A stretch of DNA of 64,000 nt. It comes from an uncultured Candidatus Saccharibacteria bacterium (GTDB taxonomy: Bacteria > Patescibacteriota > Saccharimonadia > Saccharimonadales > UBA4665). The notes under the pieces were generated by a model. It made no database searches, was not told where the DNA came from, and saw only the letters and a program-made list of their open reading frames with translations. A program made the position numbers and the translations under genes. Positions within the stretch are counted from its first letter, which is position 1; every line of letters starts with the position of its first letter. Shown here piece after piece: positions 1,623 to 14,792 of the stretch. The stretch lies in the NCBI GenBank assembly GCA_964541145.1, contig CAZIOX010000006.1:1899-65898 (forward strand), written 5' to 3'.

Positions 1623-4535
1623 CTAGTCAACTTTGGTTCGCTGTGGGCCTACCTTGACGTCGTAGTTAAAGTGCCAAAATTCGCCGGAATATTGGTATAT
1701 GCCATATTTCCAACCATTCTCAACGAGAAATGTGTAGAATGCTCTGTTGGCACCCGGAACCTTGGGCAAGGAACATATCCCCCTCACCATAACACAATTT
1801 TTTCGGGTGATATCCACACCCAAATCCCAGTCGATCGCTATCCCCACTTCATGTTTTGAGCCGCCAGGGTACGACACCCCAGCAGGGCTGATTCGATTAC
1901 GGCATTCGTAGTTGTCTTCACAGAGCTCTTTCTGATGTAGAAAAGAACGATAGCTACTCTTAGCCTTGACAGTAAGGCCTGCTGCCTGAGCATCGGCAAC
2001 AAGTCGAGAAAACGCTTCCGATGCCTCAGCGCTCACTATAGCGTGTCTATCCGACCCAGGGATATAGTATTTTGAGTTTGGATTACTTTCATCGCTTGTG
2101 CTTGGCACTTCTGTGATAGCGCACAGCATAATCTCCCCAGTTTTTTTACCTTTTGAGTCAAGTACTGGGTAAAAGCCGAGACTAACTGTCCCAACTGCAC
2201 ATTCCTCTGGGCGCGTTGGTTTGGTGATTCCTTCGGCTGGGCTGGGCATAGGGGAGACAGTTTCAGCCGCACCGCTTGCTTTTTTCTGGAGTGCCTTGAC
2301 GAGTGCGGTGGCAAATCCGCGTCTGTCCTTGTCATTTTTCCCACCTGGCATTGAGTCTGCTGCCCGTTCATAATATCGGAGGGTAAGCGTGGCGGCCTCC
2401 TCGGCAGTTTTAGCATCTTTTATCTTGTTCCAGCCTTGGCCACCATTTTTTATTTCTTCCATGACAAAATCGAGCTGAACGTCTTCTGTGTCCCAAGGCA
2501 GACCTTTGGTTGCGGCAAACTTTTTCAAGGCTACGAGTCGAGGCCCCTCCCACTGAAACAGCCCTGCAGCCGGCCCGCCAACTTGATTTTTACCGGGTTC
2601 AAAGCTACTGTTTTCATCTCGTGCATTTGCCGAAAAACCTATGGCTATATGGGGGCTCATACCACGGTCTATGAGCTTCTTGGCTATGTTGGCTTGTTTT
2701 GCGAGATACTTGTCAATGCCTGCCATTACCTCGCTTAAACTCTTCAATGTTTGCTCTTTTGTCATTTTTTCTAACCCGCCTACAGAAGCTTGACTCGCGG
2801 AAGTACTTGTTTCTTTGGACTGTCCTGTACTTGGCGTCGGTGCTGGTGGCAACTGTTTCATCAGATTTTGGAGTTCAATATCGGGAAGAGTCGAAAGATC
2901 AACGGTAGCGAGCATGGCGACCATCAGTTTTCGTTGCTCGGGCGTAAAGCCTTCCCAGTTTTTGAATGAAGAATCTTTAAACTTTTCTTCGATCAGTTTT
3001 GACCGCTCTGCAATAAGCTGTTCGAGCCCCGTGCCGGTAGCCTCTAAAATGGCCTGCTGATCTTCGGGAGTAAATGATTCGCTGACGTTAAGAGTATTGG
3101 GTTTTTCCAACGCTGCTTGCAGGCGCGCTATAAGCTTAAGAGTGTTTTCTTTGCGTTCAGCTTGTGGTGTTTTGGCTTCATAGTCGGCCACTGTTTTTCT
3201 CAGCTCTGTATCGAGTGCTGGGTTTACTTCGGGCAGCTTCTTTTGATCAGCTTGAGCGGGTGTATCGTCGGCAATCTCTGCGCTTACTGCACTTGGACCA
3301 GCAGTGCTAGCGATAGCTGCGAGCCGCTCCTTGATGGTCAGCGGCTTCCCTGTATTGTTCTCCGGCACTTTTGACGTCGGTGCACTAACCACCGCAGTAC
3401 CCGAAACGGTCTTCAGTGTATCTTCGGGCGTAACTGTTACTGTAGGTGTTTCCTCTTGGTTCGTCTTCACGCCTCCCGTGACTACTAGTAACGGGGTATT
3501 CGTGCTGAATACCGGGAGAGTGGTGATGGCTTCCACTGTGCTCGGCGGCTGGGCGACGACCAGGCTTATCCCGGGTGTGAGGGAAGGGGTTTCGGCGGGC
3601 CTCCCCTCATTTGTCGCTGCCGCTGCGCTTGGGCTCAGCGCGACTTGGCCTACTATGCTGAGTCCGACTGCCGCCAGTGTTGCTTTCTTGGGTCCGATGT
3701 CATGAGCAACCTTACCCGCTGCCTGTGCCGTGCCTATGGCGTGTCCTGTCATACGAGTAACGCTTGACTCTGGTCGGGGTATAGACCCCAAAGATTTTAC
3801 TCCAACATACCCATGTCGTGCCAACTCGTCGTACACACCTTTTGGCAGATTACTCTCGGCTTGTTGAAGTAACAGCAGTAGGAGCTTGAGATCCTTTAGG
3901 GGGACATTTCGGATGGCACCAGGGAACTGAGCGATTCGACGCTCTAGCTCTGCGCCAGAGCCATCAACCCCACGAGAATTTGCAAGGTTTGACAGTGTAA
4001 GTGAATACGCTTCCACAATTTTTGGATCACCGTTTTTCTGCAGGGCAGCGGCCGCTTTTTCTATAAAGTGCTTTGTCGCCTGAAGAGCAGTTTCATCATC
4101 GACAGGTAACAGGCGCGCAACTTGAAGTGTTTCGTTGGTCACAGCGCCCTGTTCACAAAGTTCAATCTGTTTTCGGTACACGCCGCTCAGCAACGCATGC
4201 GGCCGCACTTTGGTATGGATATCCTTAACAAGAATTTGCAATTGATCGCCGCTATACAAGTCCTCAGGAAGCCCTTTTCCAGCAAGCGAATCCCTGTATC
4301 TACCAGTAATCGTCTTAACCGCTGGAACAACCACCTTCTTATGCACGGCCTCAGACCAGCCAATCCCCATGTCACGTGTATCGTATAGATCGCCGACCGT
4401 GTGCGGGAACCATCTCAGTCCATCAACAATTGCCGCCATACTCAGTTCCATAGCAGCTGTAGTAGCAGATGTAACGTGCTCTAACACCTCTGGTTGATAT
4501 ATTGTATGGGGAGAGAATGGAGCTTCGGTATGCAT
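1623..4535 (-). CDS. Membrane-anchored bifunctional cell-wall hydrolase (lysozyme-like domain plus peptidase M15/VanY-like domain), 970 aa
   Basis: About 290 aa at the N-terminus have no TM helix, followed by one hydrophobic helix (ATLAAVGLSIVGQVALSPSAAAA). Next come a T/P/S/V-rich linker and a K/E/Q coiled-coil-like stretch. A lysozyme-like block follows (GLFQWEGPRLVALKKFAATKGLPW..QLDFVMEEI), resembling the phage-tail-lysozyme family. The C-terminal M15 motifs are SKHEVGIAID (H-x6-D) and EFWHFNY. Confidence 0.75.
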   Translation of the reverse strand: MHTEAPFSPHTIYQPEVLEHVTSATTAAMELSMAAIVDGLRWFPHTVGDLYDTRDMGIGWSEAVHKKVVVPAVKTITGRYRDSLAGKGLPEDLYSGDQLQILVKDIHTKVRPHALLSGVYRKQIELCEQGAVTNETLQVARLLPVDDETALQATKHFIEKAAAALQKNGDPKIVEAYSLTLSNLANSRGVDGSGAELERRIAQFPGAIRNVPLKDLKLLLLLLQQAESNLPKGVYDELARHGYVGVKSLGSIPRPESSVTRMTGHAIGTAQAAGKVAHDIGPKKATLAAVGLSIVGQVALSPSAAAATNEGRPAETPSLTPGISLVVAQPPSTVEAITTLPVFSTNTPLLVVTGGVKTNQEETPTVTVTPEDTLKTVSGTAVVSAPTSKVPENNTGKPLTIKERLAAIASTAGPSAVSAEIADDTPAQADQKKLPEVNPALDTELRKTVADYEAKTPQAERKENTLKLIARLQAALEKPNTLNVSESFTPEDQQAILEATGTGLEQLIAERSKLIEEKFKDSSFKNWEGFTPEQRKLMVAMLATVDLSTLPDIELQNLMKQLPPAPTPSTGQSKETSTSASQASVGGLEKMTKEQTLKSLSEVMAGIDKYLAKQANIAKKLIDRGMSPHIAIGFSANARDENSSFEPGKNQVGGPAAGLFQWEGPRLVALKKFAATKGLPWDTEDVQLDFVMEEIKNGGQGWNKIKDAKTAEEAATLTLRYYERAADSMPGGKNDKDRRGFATALVKALQKKASGAAETVSPMPSPAEGITKPTRPEECAVGTVSLGFYPVLDSKGKKTGEIMLCAITEVPSTSDESNPNSKYYIPGSDRHAIVSAEASEAFSRLVADAQAAGLTVKAKSSYRSFLHQKELCEDNYECRNRISPAGVSYPGGSKHEVGIAIDWDLGVDITRKNCVMVRGICSLPKVPGANRAFYTFLVENGWKYGIYQYSGEFWHFNYDVKVGPQRTKVD

Positions 4536-4544
4536 GTGCTATTC

Positions 4545-6611
4545 CTATGTTACGGGTTGTTTCGGTGATGAAAGGAGTGAATGGAGTAGCTTTCTTATAC
4601 CCAACCTAAAGCCCTCGACCTGCTGGGGTAGTACTGCAGGCGCGACCGGGCGATCGAGAGGAGTCTCTGGCACTACCTGATCCTGCGGTTGCGGACTGCT
4701 AGAATCCCCGTCGGTCTTTGTTATGACAGGCGCATCTTGGAGTGGTTCGGAGTAGCTAGGGAGCGCAAGCACTTGACCCAGAAACTGCTCTGCGCTATCG
4801 ATGTTTGGGCGTGTGATCATAAGTATAGGATCAAGTCGTCGTACTTGACGCTCCAATGTTGCCGTAAAGGAGTCATGCGTCTCGGATGAAAGCGCAAGAA
4901 GCTCCCCTATCTCCCGATCGAGTCGTTCTACCTCTGCTTCTACTACACTATACTCAGTCCGATCTTTTTCGCGCACCTGCTCATAAGCACTCTTCGAGGC
5001 TTCGAGCTGCTTGATAGTCTGGTGGAGTTGTTCCAAGGTATCGGCAACTTCTACTGGTAGGTATCTGGAGCTATACGATTCATAGGTCATAAACAGGCGC
5101 CCCTTAGCATCTTCATCCCCGTGTTCCGCCCATTCTTCATCCGCCAACTGTTGGTCGTGCTGCGTTTGCAAATATGCACTACGGGTATCTACTTCGGTCT
5201 TTTTTGCTCGATGTATACCTGATATTTTCTCACCAATCTGCCGGGTGGCAGTTTGTATCTGATCATTGAGCTGCCGCAGGCGGGAGCTTGCCGCCTCCCA
5301 GGCTATATTCTTCTCCTGGCCAACCGCCAATAATCCTCGTAGTGTGCACCACGTCTCGTCTGCCATACCAGCGAGTTCTACATACCCTTCGCTGACAGCC
5401 CATACTTGCTGCTCCAGAGGTGTTAGTATTGCCAAATGTCGCTCAGACTCCGTTAAAATTTCACTAAGATAGCGTTTTTTCGTTTCTACTACAGTCATCT
5501 GCTCAGCTTCAAGCCTGGTGAGCACTCCGTCGACAACCTGCACGATAGCATATAGGTTGCTTATCTCCTCAGACATGCGAGCTGGTTGTTCTGGAATCTG
5601 TTGAGTATCACCACCGACACTGGATCCCGTCGCAGTCTCTCGTCCGAAAGATACGCCCAGCAGAAAACTCCGAACTCGATCCCTCTCTTCACTGCTTGGC
5701 GCCGCTGCAATATAGTCGAGTACCGGAATCTCTGGTAGCTCAGCCATATCTGGCATATCTAGCGTAGGGACTTCTTCTGAAGGGTAGCTTCCGCCTGTCA
5801 CAAAACTTTGGTATATACCCTGTAGGTCTTCGCTGTAGCGCTCTAGGGTAGCCAACAATACCTCACCGTATGCTCCAAACGTTTTTTCGCGTTCTGCGAG
5901 CGCCTGCTTCGCTTGCTGTACCACGGCACCGTGCTCAAGCCGAACTTTCTCTGCCTCTGCAAGATCATTTTCCGTACGACGGAGTTCCTTAATGCACTTT
6001 TCAGTCTTTGAAATGGTTTCTAGTACGTTGTTGTATGCACCTCCGTTGCCTTTTCCCTGACGCAACAAGTCACTCGCTGTTGCTGAGGCCGCATCTTGTT
6101 CCTGCTGGGTATCTGCACGAGCCTTATCAGTATCGGCCACGGCACGCTCGTGCTCTGTAGCACGGGTAGTGAGCTCGTTTTCGCAAACACCGACATGATC
6201 TCGTACTGCATCGTCCACGTTCCAGCCAAAGGCGAGTACTACCAAGCTCCCGCGTATGTCGCGTAGGGCTTCTTTTCGTGTCTTCAGAGCACAGTCAAAA
6301 CGATCCATCGCTTCTGTAACCGTCTGGCAGTCTGCTGTACATTTTTCTAAGATTGCCGCCGAAAGCTCGGTCAGACGCTTCCCCAATTCTAATGCCTCCT
6401 GAACTTTCTGAGCACACTGGATGGTTTCACCCGAAGCTTCTTCGGGGAGCATACCCACTCGCAGCATTGTTTTCCGGGTGGCGATCTCTTCTGGCGTAAA
6501 AATCCGGGGCGAAAAACAGTCAACCGGTCGCTCGATTTGTGTTGTAACGACCCTCGTATGACACGCCTCTGGGATCGGCATACCTAGGATTTCGGGTGCC
6601 TGTGTCGTCAT
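4545..6611 (-). CDS. Large coiled-coil protein, 688 aa, no TM helix seen
   Basis: I moved the start to ATG 6611 (MTTQAPEIL). It overlaps the upstream stop as ATGA (6608-6611) and is preceded by GGGAGG plus 7 nt. The protein has long E/A/L/R/Q heptad-like stretches and a P-rich C-terminus. Confidence 0.7.
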   Translation of the reverse strand: MTTQAPEILGMPIPEACHTRVVTTQIERPVDCFSPRIFTPEEIATRKTMLRVGMLPEEASGETIQCAQKVQEALELGKRLTELSAAILEKCTADCQTVTEAMDRFDCALKTRKEALRDIRGSLVVLAFGWNVDDAVRDHVGVCENELTTRATEHERAVADTDKARADTQQEQDAASATASDLLRQGKGNGGAYNNVLETISKTEKCIKELRRTENDLAEAEKVRLEHGAVVQQAKQALAEREKTFGAYGEVLLATLERYSEDLQGIYQSFVTGGSYPSEEVPTLDMPDMAELPEIPVLDYIAAAPSSEERDRVRSFLLGVSFGRETATGSSVGGDTQQIPEQPARMSEEISNLYAIVQVVDGVLTRLEAEQMTVVETKKRYLSEILTESERHLAILTPLEQQVWAVSEGYVELAGMADETWCTLRGLLAVGQEKNIAWEAASSRLRQLNDQIQTATRQIGEKISGIHRAKKTEVDTRSAYLQTQHDQQLADEEWAEHGDEDAKGRLFMTYESYSSRYLPVEVADTLEQLHQTIKQLEASKSAYEQVREKDRTEYSVVEAEVERLDREIGELLALSSETHDSFTATLERQVRRLDPILMITRPNIDSAEQFLGQVLALPSYSEPLQDAPVITKTDGDSSSPQPQDQVVPETPLDRPVAPAVLPQQVEGFRLGIRKLLHSLLSSPKQPVT

Positions 6612-7897
6612 CGTGAAGCCTCCCGAATATTTCCGCAGCTCCAATGAGTGTTGACCACTTTTATCCCAAGCTGATCGGCCGTTAGAGGCTTGTTGACTGC
6701 TGCATATACATCTGCTGGCGGAACAAAAGATCCAACATACACAACCTTCAGGCCGGGTGCTTGCTCACTCACCTGGGCAGCGAGCACTTTTTCTGCCGCC
6801 GCAGCTATGTCTGCGCCACAGGTAGTTTTACCCAGTGTCTTTAAGCCCTCTGCGGTAAGATATTTGAGATATTCTGTATTTTTTGGTTCAGCCGTGAGTC
6901 GTTTATTGAGGTTTTCTACTTCTTCTTTGGTAAAGATGGTTGGCCCGGTAGGCAGCGAAAACTGAGCATTCTCGTACCATGCCTGCGGGTTGGTAGCGCC
7001 CGTACCCGGAAGGGCGGCTAGTGAGATCAACGAACGGTTGATCGTTACCATGCCCTGGGCAGTATCTGCTTTGATAACATCGCCCACTGGCTTTTGTAAA
7101 CAGGCGGCAATTGGCACCGTACCCACATACCCGGCTTGCAGAAGACGCGCTTCTGTTGGTGGCTGCGGGGCGCTCGATGGGGCAGATGTGGCCGCTGGCG
7201 CACTCGTCGCGGCGCTGGCACCTGGACCTGGAGTGGTAGTGTGGGTGGATGGAGCTGGGTTGGCACTCGGCTTTTGGACATCTTTCGGCAGCAATAGACG
7301 TTGCAACTCAGGTTGGGTTTCGAAAAAGCCAGTTAGTACTTTGGGTTTATATGCGGGATCCGCCGCGGACTTTTGTACCTCTGCGTCAGTTGCTTTCACG
7401 GTTATTTTAAGTAACGAGTCGCCTTGGTAGTCGAGTGGTACGCTAACGATAGACTGTAGGCAGTCTGGCCCAACAATATTCGGTGCGCTTTGGGGAGGTT
7501 CTACGGGGATGAACTTTTCCTTTACAAAACTACGAGCTATTCCCAGAGCCTCACCTGGCGTCGTCTCTGTTTTGACGAGTGCTACGGTTCCGGCTACAGT
7601 CAGCCCCACGCACGCCACAGCCAGCCGTTTGCGAGCAGTCCCCCATAGCACTGGGCCTAGTGGACGCCGTCCTTCTTCTGTACTCACTTCATCTGGATTT
7701 GCTCGGCTGTCCCCCACGGGCATTCTCCGGGGGACTGCGATACCTGGAAATGGCTCTCCTCCAGTGTTACTTGAAGATGCAGGAGTCGACTGGTTTTGTA
7801 ATGCTTTAAAAAAGGCATCGAAAGACGCGGAATCATGAGCTGGGGTTCCGCTCTTTTCCTCTCCGTTAGGTCCATGTTGTTCGGGTCGAGTACTCAT
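6608..7897 (-). CDS. Single-pass membrane protein, 429 aa, unknown ectodomain
   Basis: The N-terminal ~90 aa look disordered, followed by a TM helix (LAVACVGLTVAGTVALV). The ectodomain contains an S/A/P/T low-complexity insert and several Cys. The gene starts 2 nt after the upstream stop. Confidence 0.7.
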   Translation of the reverse strand: MSTRPEQHGPNGEEKSGTPAHDSASFDAFFKALQNQSTPASSSNTGGEPFPGIAVPRRMPVGDSRANPDEVSTEEGRRPLGPVLWGTARKRLAVACVGLTVAGTVALVKTETTPGEALGIARSFVKEKFIPVEPPQSAPNIVGPDCLQSIVSVPLDYQGDSLLKITVKATDAEVQKSAADPAYKPKVLTGFFETQPELQRLLLPKDVQKPSANPAPSTHTTTPGPGASAATSAPAATSAPSSAPQPPTEARLLQAGYVGTVPIAACLQKPVGDVIKADTAQGMVTINRSLISLAALPGTGATNPQAWYENAQFSLPTGPTIFTKEEVENLNKRLTAEPKNTEYLKYLTAEGLKTLGKTTCGADIAAAAEKVLAAQVSEQAPGLKVVYVGSFVPPADVYAAVNKPLTADQLGIKVVNTHWSCGNIREASR

Positions 7898-7899
7898 AG

Positions 7900-8517
7900 C
7901 TAAAGACTCCGAACCATATTTATGCCATCGCCAATATAGTTGCGAATTTCGCTGATTGGGTCTGTGCTGCCGGTTGTCTTGGTATACACACCAACTGTAG
8001 TGCCGCTAACTAATATCACGCCAAGTACCACCGAGAACAGCCTCCGCACGATGGATCTCTGACGCCTCTCAGCAAATTTTGGCCGAGCAGCTCCGGTGTT
8101 TTGAGGCAGTCTATCTTGCCACGCACGATGGTGCGCTGAGGCAGAATCGGGCCGTCGAGCAACCACAACGTGATGAAAATGCTCGACGGAGTCTATGGCG
8201 GCACTGTCCGGCGCGGGCTGTCCATCACCTCTTGCCCTAGAACTGCCCATAAACGCACCGGCCACTGCTGCTCCACCTGCCGTAAGCGTTCCTTTAAGAT
8301 GGATTTCTACAGCGCTGCCATCTGATTCTGTTCGTTTTAAAACTAGTTTACTGTCTGTATTAGGGGTTGATGGAACTGTTGCTACGTGAGAAGCAGGGAG
8401 ATCCGAGCCCGGAGGAGGAGGCGACACTTGCTCCGTAGGTGTTAACACCGCTAGATGTTCGCCCAGCTCATTATGGTTGGGTATATACTCAAGCCAGTCG
8501 ATATTCTCGGATGTCAT
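7900..8517 (-). CDS. Single-pass membrane protein, 205 aa, C-terminal TM helix
   Basis: I moved the start to ATG 8517 (MTSENIDWLEY), which overlaps the upstream stop as ATGA (8514-8517). The TM helix LFSVVLGVILVSGTTVGV lies near the C-terminus. Confidence 0.6.
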   Translation of the reverse strand: MTSENIDWLEYIPNHNELGEHLAVLTPTEQVSPPPPGSDLPASHVATVPSTPNTDSKLVLKRTESDGSAVEIHLKGTLTAGGAAVAGAFMGSSRARGDGQPAPDSAAIDSVEHFHHVVVARRPDSASAHHRAWQDRLPQNTGAARPKFAERRQRSIVRRLFSVVLGVILVSGTTVGVYTKTTGSTDPISEIRNYIGDGINMVRSL

Positions 8518-9641
8518 AGCCGAGCCCCGCTTGTTGTTGCAGTGGGTGCGCTTTGGGGCGGCATGGAACACGTTATCTTTTCGTCCAGTATAGCTTCTTG
8601 ATGTGTGGTATTTACTCCTTTGTTTTTGAGATCTTCCATATACGTCTCATCAAACATCGGTGGCTCTGTCGTTGGATTGCCGTCTTTTGTGAACACCACC
8701 GTTACTGCTTTGCCGGCTGCACGATCGCCACCTGCCAAGCGTATCGCCTGACTTTCGTAGGCAGCAACGGTGTTTTTCTGAATCTCGGGCCAGTAGTTTG
8801 GTGAACACTTTTTCCGAATTGCATCCAAAATAAGACTCTCTCCCCGAGCAGACAGGTTTGCATCTATTGCGGCTCGATCCAATACTGTGAAGGATTTAAC
8901 AATACCATCACATATTTTTCCTCGATCCCCATTAAATATCAGAGCCCCAGTGCACGCTAGCTCCAGACCTGTTCCGTTCAGACCGGGGTTTTCGAGGAGC
9001 AGTTTGAGCGGGGCATCGTGATCGACTACGATCTCTCGCTCACCCGGCTTCATCACCGGTGCGACAATAACACTCAGTTTTTCCACTGGAACTTTAACCT
9101 CTACTGGAACGTACCTACTGTTTGGCGTTGCAGGTTTCTGAGTGATTTCTACGCTCTGCTTGAAAGCAGTCATGTCGCCTTTCTGGTCTATACAGTACGT
9201 TAAATTTATCAGTTCTTTTTTGGCGACTACGCTCGAGCCAAAGCCGGGTATCTCACGATCCATAACTTCCAGTCCGAATTGAGCCCGAGAGCCAGCAGCA
9301 TCGGCCAGCGCGTGGGTGGTACAGGCGAAGTCAACAGGCTCCAGCAAAAGCGTTTTTGCCTGTACGGCTGAGCTCTCTGGACGTAGCTCATTCTTGATTC
9401 CAGCATTATGCACAAACCCCAAACCCCAGCCTATTGCAGCGCCAGTAACGGCTAACGCGCCAACCGATCTTAAAAACTTGGAAGAAATCGTTCCCAGTTC
9501 GCGGTTTTGCCTAGCTACCTCTCCATCCAGGTTGCTTAGCATAGCATTTGTGGCAGCTGCCTCGCCAGTGGGATTTGCAGGAGGAAACTCATTTATTCCA
9601 GGCTGTTGTGGTGTCATGTTCAAACCTTTGTCATACGACAC
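8514..9641 (-). CDS. Single-pass membrane protein, 375 aa, Cys-containing ectodomain
   Basis: About 55 aa are cytoplasmic, followed by a TM helix (SVGALAVTGAAIGWGLGFV) and then a ~300-aa domain with 6 Cys. I recognised no family. Confidence 0.65.
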   Translation of the reverse strand: MSYDKGLNMTPQQPGINEFPPANPTGEAAATNAMLSNLDGEVARQNRELGTISSKFLRSVGALAVTGAAIGWGLGFVHNAGIKNELRPESSAVQAKTLLLEPVDFACTTHALADAAGSRAQFGLEVMDREIPGFGSSVVAKKELINLTYCIDQKGDMTAFKQSVEITQKPATPNSRYVPVEVKVPVEKLSVIVAPVMKPGEREIVVDHDAPLKLLLENPGLNGTGLELACTGALIFNGDRGKICDGIVKSFTVLDRAAIDANLSARGESLILDAIRKKCSPNYWPEIQKNTVAAYESQAIRLAGGDRAAGKAVTVVFTKDGNPTTEPPMFDETYMEDLKNKGVNTTHQEAILDEKITCSMPPQSAPTATTSGARL

Positions 9642-9716
9642 TTACGGCACTCTCTAGAGTGCGTCCAATCTGAAGGACCTTTATCTACGACAACTAGACA
9701 CGTGGACATAGTCGAC

Positions 9717-9730
9717 ACATCTATAGATGT
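9717..9730. promoter_or_regulatory. 14-nt perfect palindrome in the 348-nt gap upstream of the 375-aa gene
   Basis: acatctatagatgt is flanked by gtcgac on one side and gtcgtcc on the other. It is a possible operator, with no further support. Confidence 0.2.
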
Positions 9731-9989
9731 CGTCCATGCCGACTACCACGTGAGGGTAGTTGCATGGCCGGCAGATGGGAACCACCCCTTCATATCCACC
9801 GGTCATACAACTCTTGGCAATTGTGCTTTGCGCAAGTATGTTCTACAGTATACATTCATACGTTTTAGATGTCAATCATTTTTGTGTTGAGTCAAATGCA
9901 GTTCAATCGTATCGTTCAGCTAGATTATGACCACCTGGAAATACTGTGTGCAATCCACTACCTTTCAGAGCACGAGAAGGTTTGAAAAA

Positions 9990-11600
9990 TTATTTTTTAA
10001 GACCAGCCAGTACAGTGCAGGCCGTTGTGCCGATTGCGGCACTGTTGGCAATAGTTTTTTTAGCCAGTGCGTCTGTCTTCAAGGTGCCAGACTTGGCTTC
10101 TTCGACCCCCCTGCTGATAATGGCTTGTATCTGGGCTTCGAGAGAGCGTGCGGGAGTTTTGGCTTGGTCCTGGACATACAGTGGCATGGTAGCGCCCGCT
10201 TTTAGCGCGTCTATAAAATCTACCGGGAGGTTGCCACCGGCAGCTCGCGTGCCAATATCGTCCGTAAATATTGGCCCATTGAAGCCATACTGTTTTGCTA
10301 AGGTATAAAATACTGCTGACTTACTCGCAGGAATGCCTGCACCTTCACCGCTGCTGGGCATAAAGGCTCCCATCATGAGGCCGGTACGTTCATTTTTCGG
10401 CACAGAAACATATGGCACAAGATCACGCTTTTTCAGTTCAGTTAGAGGTGGAACTGTCCCCGGTGCATTGTCGGTGTTGTTCGTCATACCACCGCCACCA
10501 AAATGTTTATAGACTGGGTTTATACCGTTCCCAAGCATTGATTCAGCATAGACTGTGCCAAACTGTGCAGCCACAGCCGGATCGGCACTAAATATCCTTG
10601 TTTGACCGATGGCACTTTTTGAGCCATTCTGTGGTGTCACATCGAGAACGGGGGCAAAATTGGTGTTTATGCCATAGCTCTTGAGAAGCTTTGCCCGGGC
10701 ACTCATCAAAGTGGTGACTTCGCTCGTCGGTTTTTTTGCCATGTCTTGTTGTGATGGAAAGGATTTATTTGGCGCAGTCATAAACCGGTTGACTATTCCC
10801 CCCTCGTCATCGATAGCTATCACCAGCGGCACATCAACGGCTGCTGGTGCGGCGAGCGCACGAATACCACTGGTAGGTTCCGTCATCACGATGACACCTC
10901 CGATATCGTATTTTTGGATGAGTTTTATTACATTTTGCGCAGGTGTTTTTCCATCCATGCTACTGCCATCACCCCTCACTGGGATCATAATGGTTTGGGC
11001 GATAAGTTTTTCGATAGGCAAGGCAGCTAACTGTGTCTCACAAGAAGCGGGCGATGGAGCAATTGCGGCGCCAGGAACAGCCGTTTCATTTGGCACCGAT
11101 GGTACGCTAGGAGTGGCTGTAGTCGTCGGCTTGAGTTGGCTTGTTGCCGATGCAGAAGAGGTCGTACTCGGCATTGGACTGGTTGCGACGCTGGGACTGC
11201 CAGACAAAGAAGGATCGCTATATTTTTTTGACAACCAATAGCCTCCTGCTAGTAACGCGGCTACAGTTATCGCAGCTGCAGCCCTACGCCCCCCTCTTCC
11301 CGGCTGCAACTCCGACCCTGAAGAGTGCGGCGCAGATGACCAGGCCAGTTCAGTAGCGTTCTGTCGACCCATTTGTACGACAGTGGCGTACACCGCATCT
11401 GGCAAAAGTATTTTTCCAGTTTTAAAAAACGTTGCGAGTTGGTCTGGTTCAAGCATGTATCCATGCGCGGTAAGAGCATCTAAAACATCATTCGTTGATG
11501 GTTGCGACGTTTCTTCAGCAGTGATACCTGGCGAAATGTGTGACCCATCGCCTAGAAAAGTAATTGGTGAAACCGGTTGCTGGTTGGGTGTGTTCGGCAT
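9990..11600 (-). CDS. Membrane-anchored glycoside hydrolase family 3 (NagZ-like beta-N-acetylhexosaminidase fold) protein, 536 aa
   Basis: About 105 aa are cytoplasmic, followed by a TM helix (AAAAITVAALLAGGYWL) and an S/T/P linker. GH3 N-domain blocks are present: IGGVIVM, LVIAIDDEGG, NTNFAPVLDV, KHFGGGG and FNGPIFTDDIG. Confidence 0.8.
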   Translation of the reverse strand: MPNTPNQQPVSPITFLGDGSHISPGITAEETSQPSTNDVLDALTAHGYMLEPDQLATFFKTGKILLPDAVYATVVQMGRQNATELAWSSAPHSSGSELQPGRGGRRAAAAITVAALLAGGYWLSKKYSDPSLSGSPSVATSPMPSTTSSASATSQLKPTTTATPSVPSVPNETAVPGAAIAPSPASCETQLAALPIEKLIAQTIMIPVRGDGSSMDGKTPAQNVIKLIQKYDIGGVIVMTEPTSGIRALAAPAAVDVPLVIAIDDEGGIVNRFMTAPNKSFPSQQDMAKKPTSEVTTLMSARAKLLKSYGINTNFAPVLDVTPQNGSKSAIGQTRIFSADPAVAAQFGTVYAESMLGNGINPVYKHFGGGGMTNNTDNAPGTVPPLTELKKRDLVPYVSVPKNERTGLMMGAFMPSSGEGAGIPASKSAVFYTLAKQYGFNGPIFTDDIGTRAAGGNLPVDFIDALKAGATMPLYVQDQAKTPARSLEAQIQAIISRGVEEAKSGTLKTDALAKKTIANSAAIGTTACTVLAGLKK

Positions 11601-11612
11601 ATGCTATTTCTC

Positions 11613-12209
11613 CTATTGGCGAGCAGTTTCTTGGGTAAGCGGTACGGTCACTTGAGCTGTGTTGCGCACATTTGTTGGCACGGTGGGAGTAGGCAGTTTC
11701 GTAGGGTCTGAGGGAGGAGATGCTTTCGTGGGCAAAGGTGATCGTGTAGGTAGAGCCGGTTTTGTTGGTGTGGCCGAACGTGTAGGCGACTGAGTCGGAA
11801 CAGATTTTGGATAGTCGTCTTTTATGTCGATTGCGCTCAGTAAGCCGATGAAAGGCTCAAAAAAATTATTAATCACCCGTTCTGCGCGTACTTTTGGTAA
11901 ATCATGCACAGCGTTGACTCCAACATTGACACACGATGGTAAAAAGAACGTAGCTGCAACGAACCAGAAAACTCTACGTCCCTGGCCAGTTCGCTTCTCT
12001 GGTTTGGTACTTTGCTCAGCTAGGCGGATATCCCGAATAGCCTCTGCAATTAGCTGGATATCAGGACGCAGCACGAATCGACCTGTCTCTGTATAGATTT
12101 TATCTACCAGGTCATCCCCTACCGGCACACCACTAAACTCAAGAGCACCAATAACATCCGCTGGGTATAATGCTTCCTGACGATCTGCTTCTTTTCTCCG
12201 AAATCCCAT
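11613..12209 (-). CDS. Single-pass membrane protein, 198 aa, P/T-rich C-terminal tail
   Basis: AAGGAG lies 11 nt upstream of the ATG. The TM helix is VFWFVAATFFLPSCVNVGV, and the tail is PTRSATPTKPALPTRSPLPTK. This is the first gene after the promoter region, and its stop is 12 nt before the GH3 start. Confidence 0.65.
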   Translation of the reverse strand: MGFRRKEADRQEALYPADVIGALEFSGVPVGDDLVDKIYTETGRFVLRPDIQLIAEAIRDIRLAEQSTKPEKRTGQGRRVFWFVAATFFLPSCVNVGVNAVHDLPKVRAERVINNFFEPFIGLLSAIDIKDDYPKSVPTQSPTRSATPTKPALPTRSPLPTKASPPSDPTKLPTPTVPTNVRNTAQVTVPLTQETARQ

Positions 12210-12300: not shown

Positions 12301-12328
12301 ATTATACTCTCATGTGTATTTTTGACAA
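12301..12328 (-). promoter_or_regulatory. Sigma-70-like promoter candidate for the minus-strand cluster
   Basis: On the minus strand the sequence reads TTGTCA, 16 nt, TATAAT. It lies about 90 nt upstream of ATG 12209 in an AT-rich divergent gap. Confidence 0.4.
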
Positions 12329-12367: not shown

Positions 12368-12395
12368 TTGACTATTTTGATGTTTGTGGTATTAT
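12368..12395 (+). promoter_or_regulatory. Sigma-70-like promoter candidate for 12445..13248
   Basis: TTGACT, 16 nt, TATTAT, about 50 nt upstream of the ATG. Confidence 0.3.
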
Positions 12396-12444: not shown

Positions 12445-13248
12445 ATGTCTGGAAGTGATTTTGGTGGTAATTGGGCTGGGATAGATGTACATGGGATCAT
12501 GAGTAGGCTTGATGCATCGCAGCTTGCCGCGGCACCGGGCCGTACGTCCCAAGTACCTGACGAGGATCCTTACGAAGGCTTCTTTCATCACCCTGACCCT
12601 GATAGTTATGCCCGACCTATCCCCATTCAGCCGACAGGTGATGTCCACGGAGATGATAGGGGACTGCCAGTACCAATAGTTTTTGCGAGCGATGACGAAA
12701 ACCGAGAAACTGCGATTACCCCTAGTCTACCCGACCCAAAGCGCGGTTTTGGGCGACGTACGCCGATAGACACCGCTGCACCTCACATGCTGCCAAGACA
12801 ACCGAGTGCTGTCGGGCGACTCACGGCAGCAACTCGTGTAAAGTTGCTCGACAGTCTCAAGGGATGGCATACGCGCTATTCGCGCTACCTACTCGACCCG
12901 ACCGAAACCCGTCCCATGAAAATAACCCCCTATGCCCTCATAGGAGCACACGCCACAGCGCTTCTGGTGGACACGGGGAATACTCCTGTTGCGTCTACAC
13001 TCGACCGTTTCTTGAGCGAAGGCAGTACTATGACTTTTTCGGGCGGAGCGCTGGCAGCAACCATACTTTTTACTATGGCAGAAGTCCGCAACTACCCTGA
13101 CGAAAAACTCGAATCGCCCATCGCTCGCCGCGTTGCCGCTGCCGCTATCCGCAACACCCTACACCCTATCACGGCTCATAGAAAACGAACGGAAAATCGT
13201 ACCTACCGAAAAGAAGCCAAAACCTCCCATAAAGCCACCCTCATCTAA
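12445..13248 (+). CDS. Hypothetical protein, 267 aa, two hydrophobic segments in the C-terminal half
   Basis: GAGG lies 6 nt upstream of the ATG. The N-terminal half is P/D-rich, with hydrophobic segments ITPYALIGAHATALLV and GGALAATILFTMA. I recognised no family. Confidence 0.55.
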   Translation: MSGSDFGGNWAGIDVHGIMSRLDASQLAAAPGRTSQVPDEDPYEGFFHHPDPDSYARPIPIQPTGDVHGDDRGLPVPIVFASDDENRETAITPSLPDPKRGFGRRTPIDTAAPHMLPRQPSAVGRLTAATRVKLLDSLKGWHTRYSRYLLDPTETRPMKITPYALIGAHATALLVDTGNTPVASTLDRFLSEGSTMTFSGGALAATILFTMAEVRNYPDEKLESPIARRVAAAAIRNTLHPITAHRKRTENRTYRKEAKTSHKATLI

Positions 13249-13950: not shown

Positions 13951-14023
13951 GCAGGGGCACGTGGAATCGAACCACGATCTAGGGTTTTGGAGACCCTTAT
14001 ACTAACCGTTGTACTATGCCCCT
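13949..14023 (-). tRNA. trnW: tRNA-Trp (anticodon CCA), CCA encoded
   Basis: The reverse complement is AGGGGCATAGTACAACGGTTAGTATAAGGGTCTCCAAAACCCTAGATCGTGGTTCGATTCCACGTGCCCCTGCCA. It folds as a cloverleaf with a 7-bp acceptor stem, anticodon loop CUCCAAA and T-loop TTCGATT. Confidence 0.95.
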
Positions 14024-14111
14024 TCGACAGGTTAGGTTAAACCGATTAAATTATAGCGTGTACTGCCCAGAATACCAACGCTGTAAAACAGTGGGGTATA
14101 CTATAAGTACT

Positions 14112-14792
14112 ATGAAATTCTCGACTCAACCAGTTGCAGCCGCAAATAAGGCAGTGTTTGATTTCCTCACAGCTCAGCTAACGACGGGTAAAAAAGTTTT
14201 ATGGCTGACGAGTGGCGGGTCATGTATTGCTCCTCAGGTAGACATCATGGAACGACTGAGACAAGCCAGCCCAAGCGTGTTACCAGCATTAACCATCCTC
14301 CCAGTTGACGAACGCTATGGCTCAAAAGGCCACAAACACTCAAACACAGCTCAGATGAGAACGGCTGGCTTTGATTCGTATACCGCCGCCTGGCATGATG
14401 TCCTCAAAAGAAATGAACCGGTGCAAGAAACAGTGTCATACTACTCTGAGCTTGTTTCAGACACACGTGCCGTCGCCGATGTAGTGGTGGCGACTCTTGG
14501 CATGGGTGCCGACGGCCATACCGCTGGCGTTTTACCCGGGAGCCCTGCCGTAACAGATACAGTTTCCACTGTGGTTGGGTATAGCTGGTCTGATTACGAG
14601 CGTATGACACTGGGCATATCCACACTTCTGAAGATCGACCATGTCTGGCTGCTCGCATACGGAGAAGGGAAAAAGCAAGCACTCGAACGGCTACATGCAA
14701 ACTCGGAGCCTATCGAAAAATTGCCTGCTAAAATCTTGTATGACATTGCGAACGTCACCGTCTATAATGACTACATAACTACGGAGGAATAG
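14112..14792 (+). CDS. pgl: 6-phosphogluconolactonase
   Basis: I moved the start to ATG 14112 (MKFSTQP) because the ORF-track start 14016 overlaps tRNA-Trp. Supporting motifs are LWLTSGGS, LPVDERYG and LGMGADGHTAGVLPGSP. Confidence 0.85.
   Translation: MKFSTQPVAAANKAVFDFLTAQLTTGKKVLWLTSGGSCIAPQVDIMERLRQASPSVLPALTILPVDERYGSKGHKHSNTAQMRTAGFDSYTAAWHDVLKRNEPVQETVSYYSELVSDTRAVADVVVATLGMGADGHTAGVLPGSPAVTDTVSTVVGYSWSDYERMTLGISTLLKIDHVWLLAYGEGKKQALERLHANSEPIEKLPAKILYDIANVTVYNDYITTEE

Follow-up and report, generated by a model that had tools for sequence, protein, structure and literature searches.

The window examined here, meaning the whole 64,000-nucleotide (nt) stretch of DNA from an uncultured Candidatus Saccharibacteria bacterium (contig CAZIOX010000006.1), contains seven consecutive minus-strand open reading frames (ORFs) spanning positions 12209 to 1623, which are named g7 to g1 in the direction of transcription and two of which (g6 and g1) encode proteins with predicted peptidoglycan-hydrolase domains (Table 1). 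Two transcription units lie side by side in the locus, which belongs to a bacterium of the Saccharimonadales type: a g7-g6 unit and, downstream, a five-gene operon (g5-g4-g3-g2-g1) that is real, conserved, and lineage-restricted and that represents a variation on membrane-anchored wall hydrolases with two domains.

Two transcription units and a structured leader RNA

Read from the ORF coordinates in the order g7 to g1, the gene junctions are 12 nt, 348 nt, an ATGA overlap, 2 nt, a second ATGA overlap, and 9 nt, and this run of seven same-strand genes, junctions included, had been described correctly in an earlier note made from the sequence of this DNA. A public protein collection contains exact matches to six of the seven predicted proteins, all on one 75-kb NCBI contig, and the matched window proteins fall into clusters with only one or two members at 90% identity; the start of g5 is the ATG at 9617 (giving 367 aa) and not the GTG at 9641, with which the database entry (P0002) agrees. 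The flanks are made up of chromosomal core genes (ligA, tRNAs, pentose-phosphate and glycogen genes, followed by ribosomal genes and rpoBC), and the closest relatives carry the label Candidatus Saccharimonadales.

The earlier note had placed all seven genes behind one promoter, and the candidate that it named upstream of g7 does match the consensus at all but one position; however, the 348-nt gap between g6 and g5 holds an equally good promoter (9875-9847) together with a conserved structured leader RNA, and the single seven-gene unit accordingly gives way to a separate g7-g6 unit lying upstream of this second promoter and leader. Both hexamers of the second promoter are kept in four relatives (L001, L003/L004, and L007; Table 1).

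All five genes from g5 to g1 are found in the same order in L009, with approximately 25% identity at g5 and g1, where the 751-aa positional homologue of g2 likewise has no transmembrane (TM) helix and shows N-terminal similarity to it (E about 1e-5). A protein with the layout of g4 follows the g5 homologue in L001, L009, and L010, and the g3 homologue of L001 is 51% identical to that of the window. The GH3 gene (g6) adjoins the operon only in the window and in L001, no g7 homologue is present upstream of the GH3 gene in L001, and the gene upstream of the leader and g5 in L003 encodes a polytopic membrane protein. Synteny of the whole cluster, which the earlier note had put forward as a check, thus holds for g5 to g1 and extends to g6 in L001 only, with g7 missing from its place there, and the gene order across relatives identifies the leader plus g5-g4-g3-g2-g1 as the conserved unit. 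A scan of a genome collection returned a single metagenome-assembled genome (MAG) that was already known, and two metagenome scans, one for the g5 family and one for the GH3 pair, found nothing. As a side observation, the gene upstream of the leader and g5 in L007 (56-1156) encodes a lipoprotein that carries a Tat signal and weakly resembles GH25 muramidases, at an E of 0.001 that falls short of the cut-off; it would be another wall glycosidase beside the operon, in the place of the GH3 gene.

It is highly improbable that the locus is no system at all, with hydrolase genes and fast-evolving membrane-protein genes being chance neighbours without a common function. Such a reading would accommodate the lack of a detectable family for four of the seven proteins, the large amount of low-complexity sequence in the orphan proteins, and the small number of related contigs, but it is contradicted by the retention of the five-gene order at approximately 25% identity with overlapping or tight junctions, by the conservation of the leader and promoter, and by a cytoplasmic motif shared between the two hydrolases (see below).

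The leader, which recurs in six further metagenomic lineages, has a constant position, upstream of the g5 homologue and in a single copy per locus. Long nucleotide blocks are shared with four lineages (L001, L003/L004, L007, and L008), and the 3' part is shared with L009; in the lineages sharing the leader the g5 proteins are merely 25-45% identical to that of the window, the leader being more conserved than the coding sequence. RNAalifold assigned 49 pairs to the leader, 16 of them with compensatory changes on both sides. Standard pairs made up 90.6% of pair cells, compared with 31-41% after sliding the partners by 1-3 columns, none of 500 shuffles reached the observed covariation, and the minimum free energy (MFE) z-scores relative to shuffles were -4.6 in the window and -5.6 in L003. 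A covariance model (R1) scored 184 bits at 9843-9655, its sole copy in the window, and found a single copy ahead of the g5 homologue in each of L001, L003/L004, L007, and L008; L009, which was outside the training set, scored 25 bits (E 2e-6), and L010, in which the leader has diverged, gave a weak full-length match (12 bits).

No match to the leader was obtained at gathering score among the 4227 families of Rfam 15, permissive settings giving noise only (E 0.97 or worse), and a T-box or other known riboswitch was rejected as its identity, there being no Rfam match even at E 10. Viral contig collections contained no match to the leader pattern or to the g5 family. In the MFE fold of the window, the partner of the invariant leader segment CCAUGCAAC is an upstream strand, and in the fold of L003 it is a downstream GCAUGG; these two mutually exclusive pairings hint at alternative leader structures. 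An upstream ORF (uORF; MTGGYEGVVPICRPCNY...; MT..EGVV..PCN) lies within the leader at 9700-9806 (minus strand), starting at the ATGACC in helix P2. It is ATG-initiated and occurs in four leaders with a variable stop position, L008 lacks it at that position, and its substitutions are non-synonymous, yet the base pairs are preserved by compensation. Given the variable uORF and the non-synonymous, pair-compensating changes, the conservation of the leader is read as that of an RNA structure; its conservation as a small peptide gene is disfavoured by these same features and by the gap in L008, and the uORF is probably incidental.

The leader resembles riboswitches and other cis-regulatory leaders in its position downstream of a conserved promoter and ahead of an operon's first gene, its multiple helices, its compensatory changes, and its alternative pairing, and it differs from them in falling outside all Rfam 15 families and in occurring solely with this operon. 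It probably makes expression of the operon conditional.

Table 1 Coordinates of the features of the locus in the window (nt positions) and composition of related loci
Feature	Position	Strand	Description
g7	11613..12209	-	198 aa; N-in bitopic, Pro/Thr (P/T)-rich tail
g6	9990..11600	-	536 aa; membrane-anchored GH3 N-terminal-domain protein, LpqI/NagZ type, variant acid/base motif
g5	8514..9617	-	367 aa; N-in bitopic, Cys-containing ectodomain of ~300 residues; founder of small orphan family
g4	7900..8517	-	205 aa; mostly cytoplasmic, P/S-rich, C-terminal TM anchor
g3	6608..7897	-	429 aa; N-in bitopic, two ecto-modules with P/T/S/A linker between
g2	4545..6611	-	688 aa; cytoplasmic coiled coil without TM helix
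g1	1623..4535	-	970 aa; cytoplasmic domain, TM helix, long linker, conserved helical module (residues 430-560), gp13-type lysozyme, VanY/M15B peptidase
g1, TM helix	3677-3621	-
g1, lysozyme domain	2693-2301	-
g1, VanY/M15B domain	2036-1662	-
Promoter candidate, g7-g6 unit	12301..12328	-	TTGTCA-16-TATAAT; 11/12 consensus match only
Second promoter, five-gene operon	9847..9875	-	TTGACA-17-TATACT; 11/12 consensus match, inside 348-nt gap
Structured 5' leader RNA	9655..9843	-	~190 nt, four helices; candidate cis-regulatory RNA absent from Rfam
Motif ALTAHGY, g6 tail	11457..11477	-	residues 42-48, 59 residues before TM helix
Motif ELARHGY, g1 N-terminal domain	3807..3827	-	residues 237-243, 44 residues before TM helix
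Leader in relatives	L001 2036-2226; L003 1004-1199; L007 1234-1437; L008 1-199; L009 1-166
L001, Saccharimonadales MAG			GH3, g5, g4-like, g3; 44-62% identity
L009, 13.5-kb Logan contig			g5-like, tail-anchored g4-like, g3-like (27.6%), 751-aa coiled coil, 1055-aa g1 homologue
L010			g5, g4-like, g3-like
L005, L007, L008, L011, short contigs			g4-like gene (partial copies) overlapping g5 stop
L006, distant g5 family member			different gene context

The two-enzyme hydrolase g1 and its precedents

Three hydrolase domains had been recognised in the earlier note, and all three exceeded their Pfam gathering scores. Two are in g1, Phage_lysozyme2 (PF18013) at residues 615-745 (5.5e-22; 78.9 bits against a cut-off of 28.2) and VanY at residues 834-958 (1.4e-11; 44.7 bits against a cut-off of 25), and the third is the GH3 N-terminal domain of g6 at residues 200-492 (1e-35; 124 bits). 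The VanY domain aligns with LdcB-type structures in the PDB with its Zn ligands and catalytic Glu all present (H895, D902, E952, and H955), the segments SKHEVGIAID (H895 and D902) and EFWH (E952 and H955) falling on SEHQTGLAMD and EPWH of 4ox3. For the lysozyme domain, the nearest solved structure by sequence is phi29 gp13 (3csq/3csr), in a weak alignment (E 0.017) that sets E641 (RDENSSF) against the Glu of the QSES segment of gp13 (3csr), which we take to be the catalytic Glu45; the residue is unchanged in L009.

The sequences that tblastn relates to the lysozyme domain are mostly annotated as tail-tip lysozymes of phages, as tape-measure proteins, or as further peptidoglycan hydrolases of phage origin, the domain matches PHROG 9570, and it has almost no relatives among 72,556 plasmids. 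A prophage origin of the locus was rejected, PHROG matches being confined to this one domain. As in phi29 gp13 and the phage tail-tip lysozymes, a glycan cutter and a peptide cutter are joined on one polypeptide; g1 differs in being chromosomal and membrane-anchored, in having an M15B rather than an M23 peptidase, and in the absence of phage structural genes from its cluster.

The g1 homologue of L009 (5839-9006; 1055 aa) has a cytoplasmic domain, a TM helix, and a Phage_lysozyme2 domain (59.7 bits), keeps the SAAAAT segment after the TM helix and the helical KNW-G-T module, and has, on a weak CHAP/NlpC-P60 match, a Cys-His peptidase where VanY stands in the window. On these domain matches, the peptide-cutting domain of the g1 family is exchanged modularly, and the swap of VanY for a CHAP/NlpC-like domain with the lysozyme kept points to selection for the pairing of a glycan cutter with a peptide cutter. 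A word-indexed search with g1, its linkers masked, gave no homologue among the matches listed; with the g5 profile it gave at least two matches and with g3 at least one.

The earlier note had presented the cluster as a candidate undescribed system; for the large hydrolase there are two precedents. PrgK of pCF10 (Enterococcus faecalis), a hydrolase of the DELTA class from Gram-positive type IV secretion, comprises an intracellular domain, a TM helix (254-274), LytM, a muramidase for which gp13 is the only structural homologue in the PDB, and CHAP (bioRxiv 10.1101/2024.02.15.580431). An intracellular domain of ~250-290 residues, a TM helix, an extracellular gp13-type muramidase, and a peptidase follow each other in the same order in g1, the L009 homologue has a CHAP/NlpC-like peptidase as PrgK does, and weak similarity links the lysozyme domain of g1 to that of PrgK (BLASTP E 0.004; hhalign E 0.021, but with a probability of 2%). 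The similarity is limited to the lysozyme domain, however, the intracellular domains being not detectably related, and g1 has no LytM, carries VanY/M15B rather than CHAP, has much longer linkers, and is partnered by unrelated orphan proteins. The second precedent is 'Ca. Southlakia epibionticum' ML1, in which SEML1_0006 contains glucosaminidase, PF18013, and Cys peptidase domains, SEML1_0007 (about 1100 aa) ends in a C-terminal M15 DD-peptidase, and both genes adjoin VirB4, PrgI, VirB8-like, VirB6-like, and pilin genes (PMC10633639 Table S2); the hydrolases of this type IV secretion system (T4SS) cluster were reported to be essential for epibiotic growth (PMC12102498). Compared by published description, g1 shares with them the phylum-level lineage and the enzyme toolkit of PF18013 plus M15, but the two activities are distributed over two proteins of a T4SS cluster in Southlakia, whereas in g1 they are fused and the operon has no T4SS core gene.

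These precedents raise the alternative that the locus is the wall-opening module of a monoderm-type T4SS encoded elsewhere, with g1 as the equivalent of PrgK or SEML1_0006-0007 and g5 to g2 as divergent channel or assembly factors. In its favour are the PrgK layout of g1, the identity of its enzyme pair with that of the Southlakia T4SS cluster, and the report that tight linkage of VirB1-like hydrolases to virB4 is missing from most classes of Patescibacteria (PMC12102498). We nevertheless consider it unlikely. Pfam and NCBIfam searches that covered the seven proteins, the flanks as far as 25.9 kb, and all five operon proteins of L009 returned no VirB4, VirB6/PrgH, PrgI/VirB3, or T4SS pilin, nor was a coupling protein recognised close by, and the genes downstream in L009 carry only AA_kinase and Exo_endo_phos in their precomputed Pfam annotation. 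Comparisons by hhalign of the g5, g3, and g4 families with ten pCF10 proteins (PrgD-PcfB, PrgL included) yielded probabilities of at most 1.2%, which speaks against these three being T4SS components; the structural model of g5 (see below) has no VirB8/NTF2-like match, and no similarity was detected between the N-terminal domain of g1 and that of PrgK.

The GH3 protein and the accessory proteins

The best PDB relatives of the g6 GH3 domain are 4yyf and LpqI 6gfv, which are actinobacterial NagZ/LpqI enzymes. The nucleophile region FTDDIG (445-450) is kept, aligning with YTDDL/FSDDL of 4yyf/6gfv, and the DDEGG, R272, and K365-H366 regions are conserved. The NagZ signature KH(F/I)PG(H/L)Gx4D(S/T)H carries an Asp-His catalytic dyad and is visible in both of the aligned PDB sequences. 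Residues 365-378 of g6 (10467-10508, minus strand) read KHFGGGGMTNNTDN in place of KHFPGHGxxxxDSH, as does the L001 homologue likewise, and neither register of the alignment of KHFGGGGMTNNTDNAPG with KHFPGHGHASGDSHTGG supplies the His. The dyad histidine is therefore missing; an Asp sits at the position expected for the catalytic His, and this residue, D377, may replace it. The protein scored 90.3 bits against the NCBIfam NagZ equivalog, for which the cut-off is 207. Enzymatic activity of g6 is plausible. Of the hydrolase motifs on which the earlier note had relied, those of g1 (the lysozyme Glu and the VanY residues) are thus intact in alignments and the dyad of g6 is not. The protein is like LpqI/NagZ in having a single GH3 N-terminal domain that is extracytoplasmic and membrane-tethered, and unlike them in its cytoplasmic tail of ~100 residues, which contains the motif ALxxHGY.

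In the six frames of the window (128,000 residues), there are exactly two occurrences of the pattern [AE]L..HG[YF], one in the cytoplasmic tail of g6 and one in that of g1. The GH3 homologue of L001 shares it, and the g1 homologue of L009 has ELLAHGF. The position and conservation of the motif suggest a common cytoplasmic docking site for g1 and g6. In g7, the TM helix is at residues 80-98 and is followed by a P/T-rich tail outside with no folded ectodomain; the protein has a degenerate version of the motif (ALEFSGV) and weak similarity to the g6 tail, and it may have arisen by duplication and decay of the N-terminal portion of g6.

The earlier note had suggested a membrane-tethered complex whose enzymes could digest peptidoglycan to monosaccharides and peptides, and in its fullest form this would mean that a seven-protein complex breaks host peptidoglycan down completely for nutrition. 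Three wall-active domains are indeed clustered, the long P/T-rich linkers could reach past the cell's own wall, and an epibiotic lifestyle is probable from the Saccharimonadales affiliation of the closest relative. Against this stand the division of the genes between two units, the absence of the dyad histidine from g6 and its score far under the NagZ equivalog cut-off, which weaken the breakdown to monosaccharides in particular, the absence of any amidase, transporter, or MurNAc/GlcNAc catabolic gene from the cluster, and the lack of linkage between the GH3 gene and the operon in L003 and L007; a single muramidase and carboxypeptidase would also fit local cutting better than bulk digestion. 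Nutritional harvesting is, in our estimate, decidedly unlikely.

A hydropathy scan found a single TM helix each in g1, g3, g4, g5, and g7 and a weaker candidate in g6, with basic residues ahead of every TM helix, which fits an N-in orientation. The 688-aa g2 has no TM segment (maximum Kyte-Doolittle (KD) value 0.91), as had been claimed for it, and it gave a weak SMC coiled-coil match in the NCBIfam search. The layout that the earlier note had ascribed to six of the seven proteins (a cytoplasmic stub, one TM helix, a linker, and an ectodomain) survives in part: the helix is there in five and weaker in g6, where the putative segment is only moderately hydrophobic (KD 1.28), but g4 is tail-anchored, g7 has no folded ectodomain, and the "stub" of g1 is a domain of 286 residues. 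Nothing significant was found for g2, g3, g4, g5, or g7 in Pfam, NCBIfam, or PHROGs, and none of the seven proteins matched an ATPase, pilin, transposase, or phage structural family in these three collections, which agrees with the earlier note. Paralogy among the seven was rejected, the only matches being between low-complexity linkers.

An exhaustive HMMER search for the g5 family found 17 representatives among 1.84 billion clustered proteins, a rarity that points to an accessory rather than a core function. Residues C222, W276, A291, F309, and G313 are invariant in the family, and C236 is nearly so. The AlphaFold2 (AF2) model of g5 (m7d869edad46f; predicted local distance difference test (pLDDT) score 71) has no significant fold match in the PDB or BFVD by Foldseek, NTF2/VirB8 folds included, and g5 has no sequence match in the PDB. 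As an aside, the top PDB hits of this model (SPLUNC1, LBP, carotenoid-binding protein, and OSBP ORD) were non-significant and were not used (E at least 0.14; TM-score at most 0.26); they are lipid-binding-like shapes of a sheet plus a long helix, too weak to count, and the lineage is lipid-auxotrophic. The TM helix of g3 is at residues 92-110; the protein has no PDB or Pfam match, and its AF2 model, made from two sequences, gave no usable structure (pLDDT 28). In g4 the TM helix occupies residues 160-178 of 205, with RRQRSIVRR ahead of it and ~27 residues outside. The contention that the orphan proteins match no part of a known conjugation, divisome, or sporulation machine was borne out in every search made (Pfam, NCBIfam, PHROGs, PDB sequence, Foldseek with the g5 model, and hhalign with pCF10 PrgD-PcfB).

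The wall on which the locus acts may be the cell's own or that of a host, both being compatible with the sequence. In the former case it would be a housekeeping autolysin in which the coiled coil places a septal or polar hydrolase for daughter separation, budding, or turnover and the NagZ-like protein recycles muropeptides, a functional analogue of RipA/RpfB or of FtsEX-PcsB control. Coiled-coil proteins commonly organise wall growth zones, the setting between ligA and the pentose-phosphate and ribosomal genes is that of the chromosomal core, the best GH3 relatives are actinobacterial recycling enzymes such as LpqI, and the VanY domain resembles the LD-carboxypeptidase LdcB, all of which would suit such a role. 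A core division function should, however, be widespread in Saccharibacteria, and the g5 family has 17 representatives in 1.84 billion proteins; moreover, the lysozyme is of the phage-tail/PrgK type, which is used for local piercing, no FtsE/FtsX or other divisome gene is adjoining, and the dedicated structured leader suggests conditional expression. An own-wall autolysin is a serious competitor that we judge somewhat improbable; with rare accessory proteins accompanying a phage-tail/PrgK-type lysozyme, we lean towards a specialised function, possibly a host-directed one.

Two further features lie beside the locus. A 267-aa orphan ORF without a family match (12445-13248, plus strand) is divergent from g7, and its own promoter candidate (12368-12395) lies in opposite orientation next to that of g7. 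Beyond it, a tRNA gene (13952-14023, minus strand) overlaps the first codons of a 6-phosphogluconolactonase-like ORF (14016-14792, plus strand), and given this overlap the true start of the latter gene is probably further downstream.

A candidate wall-piercing complex and its meaning

The explanation that we favour, with our confidence about equally divided between its being right and its being wrong, is that the locus encodes a scaffold-positioned wall-piercing complex that operates without an ATPase. The five-gene operon would be transcribed from its own promoter through the leader RNA, which would set its expression, and g1 would serve as a membrane-anchored "hole-punching" hydrolase with both enzyme domains outside on long flexible linkers. 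The ectoproteins g5 and g3, the tail-anchored g4, and the cytoplasmic coiled coil g2 would form a trans-membrane scaffold that fixes where, and perhaps when, g1 acts, making cleavage local rather than bulk, and g6 would probably be brought to the same site via the shared tail motif and would trim the glycan products. Localisation would thereby replace the ATPase of FtsEX-type or type IV secretion systems; the cluster differs from FtsEX-type hydrolase control in having no ABC ATPase or permease (Pfam and NCBIfam). The conserved gene order, the domains with their catalytic residues, the promoter and leader, and the common tail motif are observations, and complex formation, control by a scaffold, local cleavage, and a regulatory role of the leader are inferred from them.

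Several points weigh against this explanation. For the four accessory proteins neither a fold nor a family could be recognised, and the scaffold is accordingly deduced from topology and co-inheritance; association among the seven proteins is presumed. Full five-gene synteny is seen in just one additional contig, the other related contigs being short, and the GH3 gene is adjacent in two genomes only. Without the canonical acid/base histidine, g6 may be inactive or have another specificity, and the ALxxHGY motif was defined post hoc, after it had been seen. The leader structure was derived from the same alignment that was used to score it, with five sequences (of 5-7 available), and neither a terminator nor a clear Shine-Dalgarno-sequestering helix was found in the leader. 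A more far-reaching version would have a small clade of Saccharimonadales possessing an ATPase-less trans-envelope apparatus for breaching the Gram-positive wall of the host where the two cells touch, composed of the four orphans and a PrgK/gp13-type double hydrolase, with a variant NagZ docked to it through the shared cytoplasmic motif and with expression switched on by a new riboswitch class sensing, for example, a wall- or host-derived metabolite; in this full form we regard it as improbable.

It is an open question how epibiotic Patescibacteria get past the thick host wall or feed across it, and the essential hydrolase pair of the Southlakia T4SS cluster has so far been the sole genetic handle on it. 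The locus described here puts an enzyme pair of the Southlakia type on one membrane-anchored protein, in a compact operon without secretion ATPases, and offers two testable hooks: a shared tail motif that possibly docks both hydrolases to a scaffold and a leader RNA that is absent from Rfam. If it were to prove an own-wall system, it would be a lineage-specific autolysin of modest general interest. Should the leader be a riboswitch, its ligand would reveal the signal that triggers opening of the wall, and if the accessory proteins form a complex, they would represent a novel mode of control that is exerted on extracellular hydrolases from the cell interior.

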